From a virus, in IMG/VR virus record IMGVR_UViG_3300031918_000005, positions 64,001 to 128,000 of that record: DNA of 64,000 nucleotides. The stretch is one strand, 5' to 3'. Shown here in pieces: positions 42,877 to 43,551 of this stretch. Numbering within the stretch: position 1 is the first letter of the stretch; each line of letters starts with the position of its first letter. A program made the translations under genes and the position numbers. The notes under the pieces are model-generated. The model had not been told where the DNA came from. It saw only the letters and a list, made by a program, of their open reading frames with translations, and did not search any database.

Positions 42877-43551
42877 TCAACCTTTAGTTTTTTTATTTAT
42901 TTTATAAATTGTTTTGTGTAACCAATATTCAAGTTTTGTTAGTAATGATTTCGATTCCATATTTTTATAATACAATTCAAAAATAGATATCTTCTCAAAT
43001 TCCGATATTTGTGTGTTGAGTATGTCAACATCTGTATCATATGTTACACAATTATGAACCAACAATCCATCAGCAATAAACATATGAAGCTTATCATCAA
43101 TTGTTATGTCAAATACTTTATGTTTACCATTCAATAATTCAACTGATTCAATAATATCAAATTTACCTTCGGCATCGGTAAGACAATATTCATTCATTAC
43201 ACAATCTTCCAAATGGCTTTTCAATCGTTTTGTTGAAAAGTATGTATTTTTAACAACGACTGTATTTCTTACAATACAGCAAGGAAATATATGGTCTTCA
43301 GTAGCTTGTATTATTTTACCAGTTTTAGTGGTTATTTTACACAATTCTTTTTTACCATTATAATGTACATGAGTTATTTTTGAAATTCTTGTTTTATCTA
43401 TATTAACAAAGTAACCAAAGGGTTCTATTTTATAAGACCTTTGGTTACTATATATTATAACATCTTCAATCAAAGATATCAAATATATGATAAGCTTAGG
43501 GGAAAAATTTTTACACGATGTTTTTTGTAACTTCGACATAATCTTCATCAT
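42877..43551 (-). CDS. Extein-less intein protein: split-intein C-half fused to a second split-intein N-half
   Basis: KITTKTGKIIQATEDHIF (block B TxxH), VFDITID (block F), FIADGLLVHN (block G), then CVTYDTDVDI (block A) and ISIFELYYK...LLTKLEYWL; start may be 43539. Confidence 0.82.
   Translation of the reverse strand: MMKIMSKLQKTSCKNFSPKLIIYLISLIEDVIIYSNQRSYKIEPFGYFVNIDKTRISKITHVHYNGKKELCKITTKTGKIIQATEDHIFPCCIVRNTVVVKNTYFSTKRLKSHLEDCVMNEYCLTDAEGKFDIIESVELLNGKHKVFDITIDDKLHMFIADGLLVHNCVTYDTDVDILNTQISEFEKISIFELYYKNMESKSLLTKLEYWLHKTIYKINKKTKG

Follow-up and report, generated by a model that had tools for sequence, protein, structure and literature searches.

An open reading frame made up entirely of intein sequence appears to act as an adaptor for protein splicing in this phage, relaying between two different inteins that are stacked at the Walker A site of the terminase (TerL) and are both atypically split. 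We put the probability of this reading at about 0.8. The adaptor joins the C-terminal half of one intein, IntC(a), directly to the N-terminal half of another, IntN(b), while IntN(a) is carried by a gene for the N-terminal piece of TerL and IntC(b) by a gene for its ATPase domain. Table 1 places these features in the window (the whole stretch of 64,000 nucleotides that was analysed) and in the source virus record (G000), which is 167,485 bp long and rated 100% complete; at 167 kb it is not strictly the jumbo phage that it was first taken for. Throughout, a slash marks a splice junction.

Table 1. Positions of the terminase genes and of the intein halves that they carry.
Feature	Window	Source record (G000)	Strand	Remarks
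TerL N-terminal piece + IntN(a)	24806-25279	88806-89279	(-)	109 aa to Walker A RQSGK; phrog_5989 E 1e-14
IntN(a)	24809-24952		(-)	48 aa, starts CLDGG (SRQSGK/CLDGG)
Adaptor ORF	42877-43551	106877-107551	(-)	224 aa; IntC(a)-His-Asn/Cys-IntN(b); extein-less
IntC(a)	43051-43551		(-)	167 aa (residues 1-167); predicted N-terminal helix 18-33; blocks B, F, G
Cys168	43048-43050		(-)	putatively both +1 of intein a and Cys1 of intein b
IntN(b)	42880-43050		(-)	57 aa; block A CVTYDT; predicted beta-hairpin and helix
IntC(b)-Ser-TerL ATPase gene, outside window		C1:129227-130303	(+)	IntC(b) 141 aa, ends SHN, then SIISGIF
TerL nuclease gene, outside window		C1:151754-152593	(+)	intein-free

As the original prediction held, the adaptor is all intein. 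Block B (ATEDH, with T84/H87), block F (VFDITID, with D148) and block G (GLLVHN, with H166/N167) can be read in turn, C168 directly follows N167, and 56 more residues complete the tail, with no host-protein sequence anywhere in the frame. Residues 50-166 match Pfam Intein_splicing (E 1.7e-8) at 34.8 bits, slightly short of the 35.8 cut-off, and both TIGR01443 (intein_Cterm, residues 145-168) and TIGR01445 (residues 46-89) match above their cut-offs. In the AF2 model of the adaptor, residues ~33-168 superpose on solved inteins minus their first ~18-40 residues, and the C-terminal helix of IntN(b) is predicted at residues 203-223. The model matches the IntC of the Cat intein (6dsl_B) with a Z of 9.9 (rmsd 3.3, 112 aligned) and reaches Z 11.5 with its top intein match (rmsd 2.3, 122 aligned), which indicates a Hint fold for IntC(a).

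The tail alone matches no NCBIfam model. A profile of adaptor tails, run against six other segments that follow RQxGK, scores L036 (29.4 bits), L075 (26.8 bits), P0135 (20.9 bits) and L057 (12.3 bits), and gives no score with L084 (0.6 bits) or with the N-terminal segment of the fusion protein P0186 (-1.0 bits). Because four of the six are scored, at 12-29 bits, we regard the tail as a TerL-type IntN, as had been proposed, and not as part of a non-intein protein. Block A stands directly after Asn167 in 24 of 24 listed proteins, which were chosen for this layout. The residues of a class 1 intein can be assembled for intein a from C110 on the TerL-N piece and T84/H87, D148, H166-N167 and C168 on the adaptor, and for intein b from C168 and, on the ATPase gene, the block-B His in CSINH (without Thr), FTFD and SHN/S. 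Both are therefore predicted, from their residues, to splice as class 1 inteins.

The rest of TerL is scattered over the genome. An intein-less TerL (P0033) maps to exactly three places in G000, namely residues 7-114 to the TerL-N gene, residues 113-318 to the ATPase gene and residues 333-560 to the nuclease gene, so that an intact terminase gene is absent. The second of these places is the IntC(b)-TerL gene that the original prediction had expected outside the window; the separate nuclease gene had been missed, and the terminase once described as 'three-piece' occupies four genes. These spread over ~63 kb on both strands in G000, with the splicing pieces 17-22 kb from each other. In all, G000 contains two Intein_splicing matches and two IntN halves, and no more. 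The intein site sits inside Walker A (RQSGK/S), where intein-less homologs read RQIGK/S; a working ATPase therefore needs splicing. Inteins are common in P-loops and in terminases, according to the available text of PMC4760082. The nuclease domain is a separate intein-free gene in 8 of 8 large records (including L049-L053), adjoining the ATPase gene in G007 (~30 nt) and 21 kb from it in G000.

Some other genes of this genome deserve mention. A family-B DNA polymerase is apparently also encoded in two genes, without an intein (window 25387-26604(-) and G000:C1:131677-133158(+)); one part has 493 aa with YDFESLYPS and the other 405 aa, its G001 and G002 counterparts carrying LNSIYG and YGDTDS, all of which we take to be polymerase motifs. 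Two genes from the adaptor lies a homing-endonuclease-like ORF (window 41345-42322(+); phrog_3339, E 1.7e-14) that opposes the local gene direction; in G001 the corresponding neighbours have no such ORF between them. Its N-terminal WY...LTxFL motif is shared, as judged by eye, by ~5 ORFs of the genome, among them window 36929-37951(-) and those at G000 27500, 50457 and 55205.

The relay would draw on the established chemistry of class 1 inteins. TerL-N-IntN(a) would bind IntC(a) of the adaptor, and in the first splice an acyl shift at Cys110, transfer to Cys168 and cyclisation of Asn167 would produce TerL-N-IntN(b). Cys168 would thereby switch roles, serving as the +1 nucleophile of intein a and then as Cys1 of intein b. 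TerL-N-IntN(b) would bind IntC(b) of the ATPase gene product and TerL-N would pass to Ser+1, giving an intact ATPase domain (...RQSGK-SIISGIF...) with zero adaptor residues, and this predicted final junction matches the intein-less RQIGK/SITVAIFIVWY. The reverse order, with the adaptor first turning IntC(b)-TerL into IntC(a)-TerL, would lead to the same product. As the nuclease has no linking intein, this fourth gene product would presumably join non-covalently. For the relay of two split inteins at one site that had been proposed, the parts and the predicted partner gene have thus been located, and which half pairs with which is an interpretation taken up below.

A single natural chain apparently preserves a half-way state of this system. 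P0186 (376 aa) is laid out as TerL-N-RQIGK/Ser-segment-IntC-HN/C-IntN(b) and is found on two contigs (the longest of 167,903 bp) as a single-member cluster; by this layout it would hold an unsplit intein a followed by IntN(b). A tree of 47 rows places its IntC with those of adaptors (support 94/91, on a long branch of 3.25), and IntC(b) stands apart from it, with the IntCs of full-length IntC-TerL proteins (99/97); adaptor IntCs do not come out as one demonstrated clade. Neither IntN profile picks up the N-terminal segment of P0186 (1.2 and -1.0 bits), which is therefore labelled IntN(a) by its position. Intein structures align to the AF2 model of P0186 only over ~173-318, so that the N-terminal segment is undocked in the model, an outcome biased by an alignment that held no rows for this segment. 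In P0186 a short linker connects the extra helices at the N-terminus of IntC and the C-terminus of IntN, and these helices may form the recognition module. A scan for the P0186 locus gave no match.

Among the metagenomic proteins matched in the profile search described below, some have two unsplit inteins at one site, separated by a bare HN/C: a gyrase/topo IV A subunit (P0155, with P0251 as a fragment), another terminase (P0195, assigned by motifs, with no family match) and P0151. The stacked inteins of these three proteins are mutually alike, with 28-33 identities over 80-85 residues and scores of 121-160 against shuffle maxima of 38-46. The first of each pair is a mini-intein and the second is long, with a LAGLIDADG match in P0151 and an HNH match in P0195. 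A further adaptor, that of P0206/P0285, has an IntC near the two-piece TerL inteins of large phages (39-49% to LR756500/LR756501), and this design may have arisen there independently.

The likely origin of the relay is a stacked double intein that was split twice and became obligatory without requiring any benefit, by constructive neutral evolution. A plausible series would lead from a single intein to a stacked pair, then to a pair with one member split (P0186) and to a pair with both split (this locus); elsewhere, the same TerL site holds one unsplit intein (Ackermannviridae) or one split intein (Atu_ph07, metagenomic large phages). Once a and b cease to cross-react the adaptor cannot be lost, and so no regulatory benefit is required. 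One alternative shares the relay mechanism, and is compatible with it, but differs in why the relay is kept: as an evolved control of packaging timing (an AND gate), or as a weapon for hijacking or excluding the split terminases of co-infecting phages. We consider this unlikely. The dispersal of the genes over ~63 kb and both strands of G000 would suit it, as would the quicker divergence of intein a than of intein b, which could result from an arms race over recognition. Genes are commonly fragmented throughout these genomes, however, the nuclease domain having been split off without any intein, and faster drift in a mutually dependent pair requires no selection story. For the AND gate of the original prediction we found nothing beyond the dispersal itself.

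In the relay, IntN(a) would pair with IntC(a) and IntN(b) with IntC(b). We infer this pairing from P0186, from the matched divergence of the halves and from a weak complex prediction. Between G000 and G001 the a-halves (IntN, IntC) are 56 and 41% identical and the b-halves 65 and 74%; the corresponding values are 40 and 27% against 42 and 49% for G002, and 21 and 20% against 37 and 31% for G005. An a-half is less conserved than the matching b-half in all 12 comparisons outside the close G005-G007 trio (12 of the 15 comparisons listed, which are not independent). Within one genome, a and b halves are only 24-30% identical. For IntN(a), adaptor and IntC(b) together, complex prediction returned 0.53, against 0.27 for the best control, in which IntC(b) was retained but the adaptor substituted; the runs shared at least 81% of contacts, and partner pLDDT was 76 or higher. 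Of 80 solved pairs 58 attained the mark used, as did 2 of 110 mismatched ones, but with a value no higher than 0.60 only 7 of the 80 solved pairs did so, along with both mismatches. Resemblance to solved inteins may also account for a pass, and the result thus supports the pairing weakly. Charge complementarity was dropped as a pairing test, with p values of 0.09-0.67 and no significant pairing over 8 non-independent genomes.

A different possibility is that IntN(a) bypasses the adaptor and splices directly with IntC(b). The adaptor would then be a self-folded permuted intein or a freely cross-reacting one, with the role of a decoy, a brake, a chaperone or a parallel route. The AF2 models of the adaptor and P0186 are compatible with such closure in cis; in the adaptor modelled alone, the IntN(b) region has a pLDDT of 84-88 (pTM 0.74), as would fit docking on IntC(a) of the same chain. 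All four halves come from one TerL intein family, and the IntNs of GOS-TerL and AceL-TerL are interchangeable in the part of PMC11766414 available, which makes bypass by cross-splicing plausible. In a self-closed adaptor, however, Cys168 would be Cys1 and +1 of the same intein, so that there would be nothing to ligate and the invariant catalytic residues would be futile. An adaptor that splices nothing in cis and yet retains its catalytic set would presumably work in trans. The low identity between a and b halves within each genome also argues against the bypass, as do P0186, which puts TerL-N and adaptor in one chain, and, weakly, the drop in the predicted score of IntN(a) when the adaptor is replaced. 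On balance we hold the bypass to be quite improbable. A self-closed resting state and the relay function are not exclusive, and the adaptor could have both.

The architecture recurs in related phages. Four close homologs of the adaptor, 47-52% identical, have the same layout (5 matches including the query, from 110 candidates), and a profile search of 1.84 billion representatives returned this layout in 8 of the best 150 matches, query included. Every one of the 7 related phage records with a completeness of at least 83% (G001, G002, G005-G009) carries genes for TerL-N-IntN, adaptor, IntC-ATPase and nuclease; together with G000 these records form three lineages, and the independent count is therefore ~3. 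Of three records of ~20% completeness, G003 includes both TerL-N and an adaptor, whereas G004 (19%) and G010 (21%) are without an adaptor, an absence that is uninformative in fragments; the G010 match in the adaptor search is its IntC-TerL gene, which puts true adaptors at 5 of 6 there and at 3 of 4 in another search. In G005-G009, IntN(a) is shortened to 39 aa and has Ser at position 1.

Sequence comparison indicates that the adaptor is under purifying selection. All 16 aligned rows, which are 22-50% identical, keep H87, D148, H166, N167 and C168; HN/C helped to choose these rows, and H87 and D148 played no part in the choice. The 10 pairs drawn from G005-G009 have dN/dS values of 0.07-0.13 across the entire adaptor and of 0.03-0.10 across IntN(b), and for G000/G001 the adaptor gives 0.38 (dS 1.2). 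The HN/Cys junction is crossed without differences by contigs of two of four peat-metagenome runs (X3 and X5). Although several comparisons show IntC(a) to diverge faster than any other part, a decayed relic of intein rearrangement, which the original prediction had named as its own possible refutation, is contradicted by the low dN/dS and the intact catalytic residues, and an assembly artefact by the crossing contigs and by the presence of the adaptor in all seven near-complete relatives, so that both can be set aside as highly improbable. Another contig, present in all four runs, matches only the terminal helix of IntN(b) (window 42888-42941) with 6 differences, and probably belongs to a co-occurring relative with its own adaptor.

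Wider searches added few loci. A scan of viral contigs with the single adaptor sequence found no relative, and two scans of genome contigs gave no match and hence no host clue. With distant adaptors (A6) as query, at least six loci were returned, and among the matches listed none was similar beyond the HN(C) junction; a DNA pattern scan gave four loci, every one on contigs already known. No adaptor was found in cultured phages, where the IntN(b) search gave one match, at E 7. A Brucella phage locus was considered as an adaptor and rejected, as its intein is of the usual contiguous kind and has a Cys extein after it. Among 295 proteins, covering 120 of the 172 matches of one search, no fusion of adaptor, IntC(b) and TerL occurs. 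In the ESM Atlas, two viral clusters with a score of 0.90, of 73 and 74 members, consist of intein/Hint-only proteins of 219-220 aa and possibly represent additional adaptors.

To our knowledge, natural protein trans-splicing has been described as a two-gene event. Ligation of three segments by tandem protein trans-splicing was reportedly achieved by Shi and Muir in 2005. In SICLOPPS, both halves of one intein flank a peptide that is to be cyclised. The adaptor has in common with SICLOPPS (PDB 5ol1) that IntC precedes IntN, and its model matches that structure with Z 8.4 (rank 50), but it has no extein peptide between the halves, and these appear to come from different inteins. Closer in logic is engineered tandem trans-splicing which, in the available text of PMC12707363, uses three precursors and a middle chain IntC1-X-IntN2 of orthogonal inteins; there the middle adds protein, whereas here the chain is natural, X = 0, and one Cys would serve both inteins.

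Among natural systems, GOS-TerL, AceL-TerL and the consensus Cat intein (PMC11766414, as far as its text was available; PDB 6dsl) have the same TerL host, a short IntN with block A only, a long IntC, and Cys1 or Ser1 with Cys+1. The Ser1/Cys+1 chemistry is known there from GOS-TerL. As described in that text, they consist of two pieces and one intein, with one IntN and one IntC each on a host piece; here there are two of each, in three splicing genes with an extein-less middle, and unlike theirs the halves carry extra terminal helices. Agrobacterium phage Atu_ph07 has a cultured two-piece TerL intein at the same Walker A site. Fractured genes (Dassa et al. 2009, PMC2677866, in the portion available) are similar in that an essential phage enzyme, terminase included, is joined by a split intein, and the C-terminal half of the fractured terminase is likewise long (122 residues, without N1 only). 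They are defined there as two same-strand halves around a free-standing endonuclease gene, whereas the pieces here lie 17-22 kb apart on both strands, with no endonuclease cassette and an extra intein-only gene. At the two-piece locus L036, a 367-aa ORF stands between the halves.

The Ackermannviridae TerL intein (Salmonella phage bering, Vibrio phage VAP7) is of the same family and uses the same site (RQSGK/T), and its block A (CVRGDTLV/CVDHDTMI) resembles CVTYDTDV of the adaptor; it is a single unsplit intein in one gene. The chemistry and the parts are thus known, and the extein-less architecture is without description in the literature searched. In that literature, which left subscription journals and supplements largely uncovered, we found no precedent for a natural extein-less adaptor, in agreement with what had been stated before, and no description of inteins stacked at the same site.

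There are several implications of these observations. The unsplit pairs indicate that two inteins can occupy one insertion site. Adaptors of the present kind probably represent a class of essential genes free of host sequence, found in several phage lineages and derived from same-site stacked inteins, in which an obligate orthogonal adaptor uses one Cys for two inteins in turn; this would be a new gene class if the relay proves obligate and orthogonal. For annotation, phylogenies based on terminases will overlook or misassign the four-gene terminases of these phages. As tools for protein engineering, each phage would offer two split inteins that have to work side by side, with synthesisable N-halves of 39-60 residues that include a Ser1/Cys+1 variant, and if the relay is real each genome would hold a co-evolved orthogonal pair of short-IntN split inteins, the adaptor being a specificity converter. 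Finally, a gene that adds nothing to the product and is nevertheless selected would be a test case for how selfish elements become indispensable.
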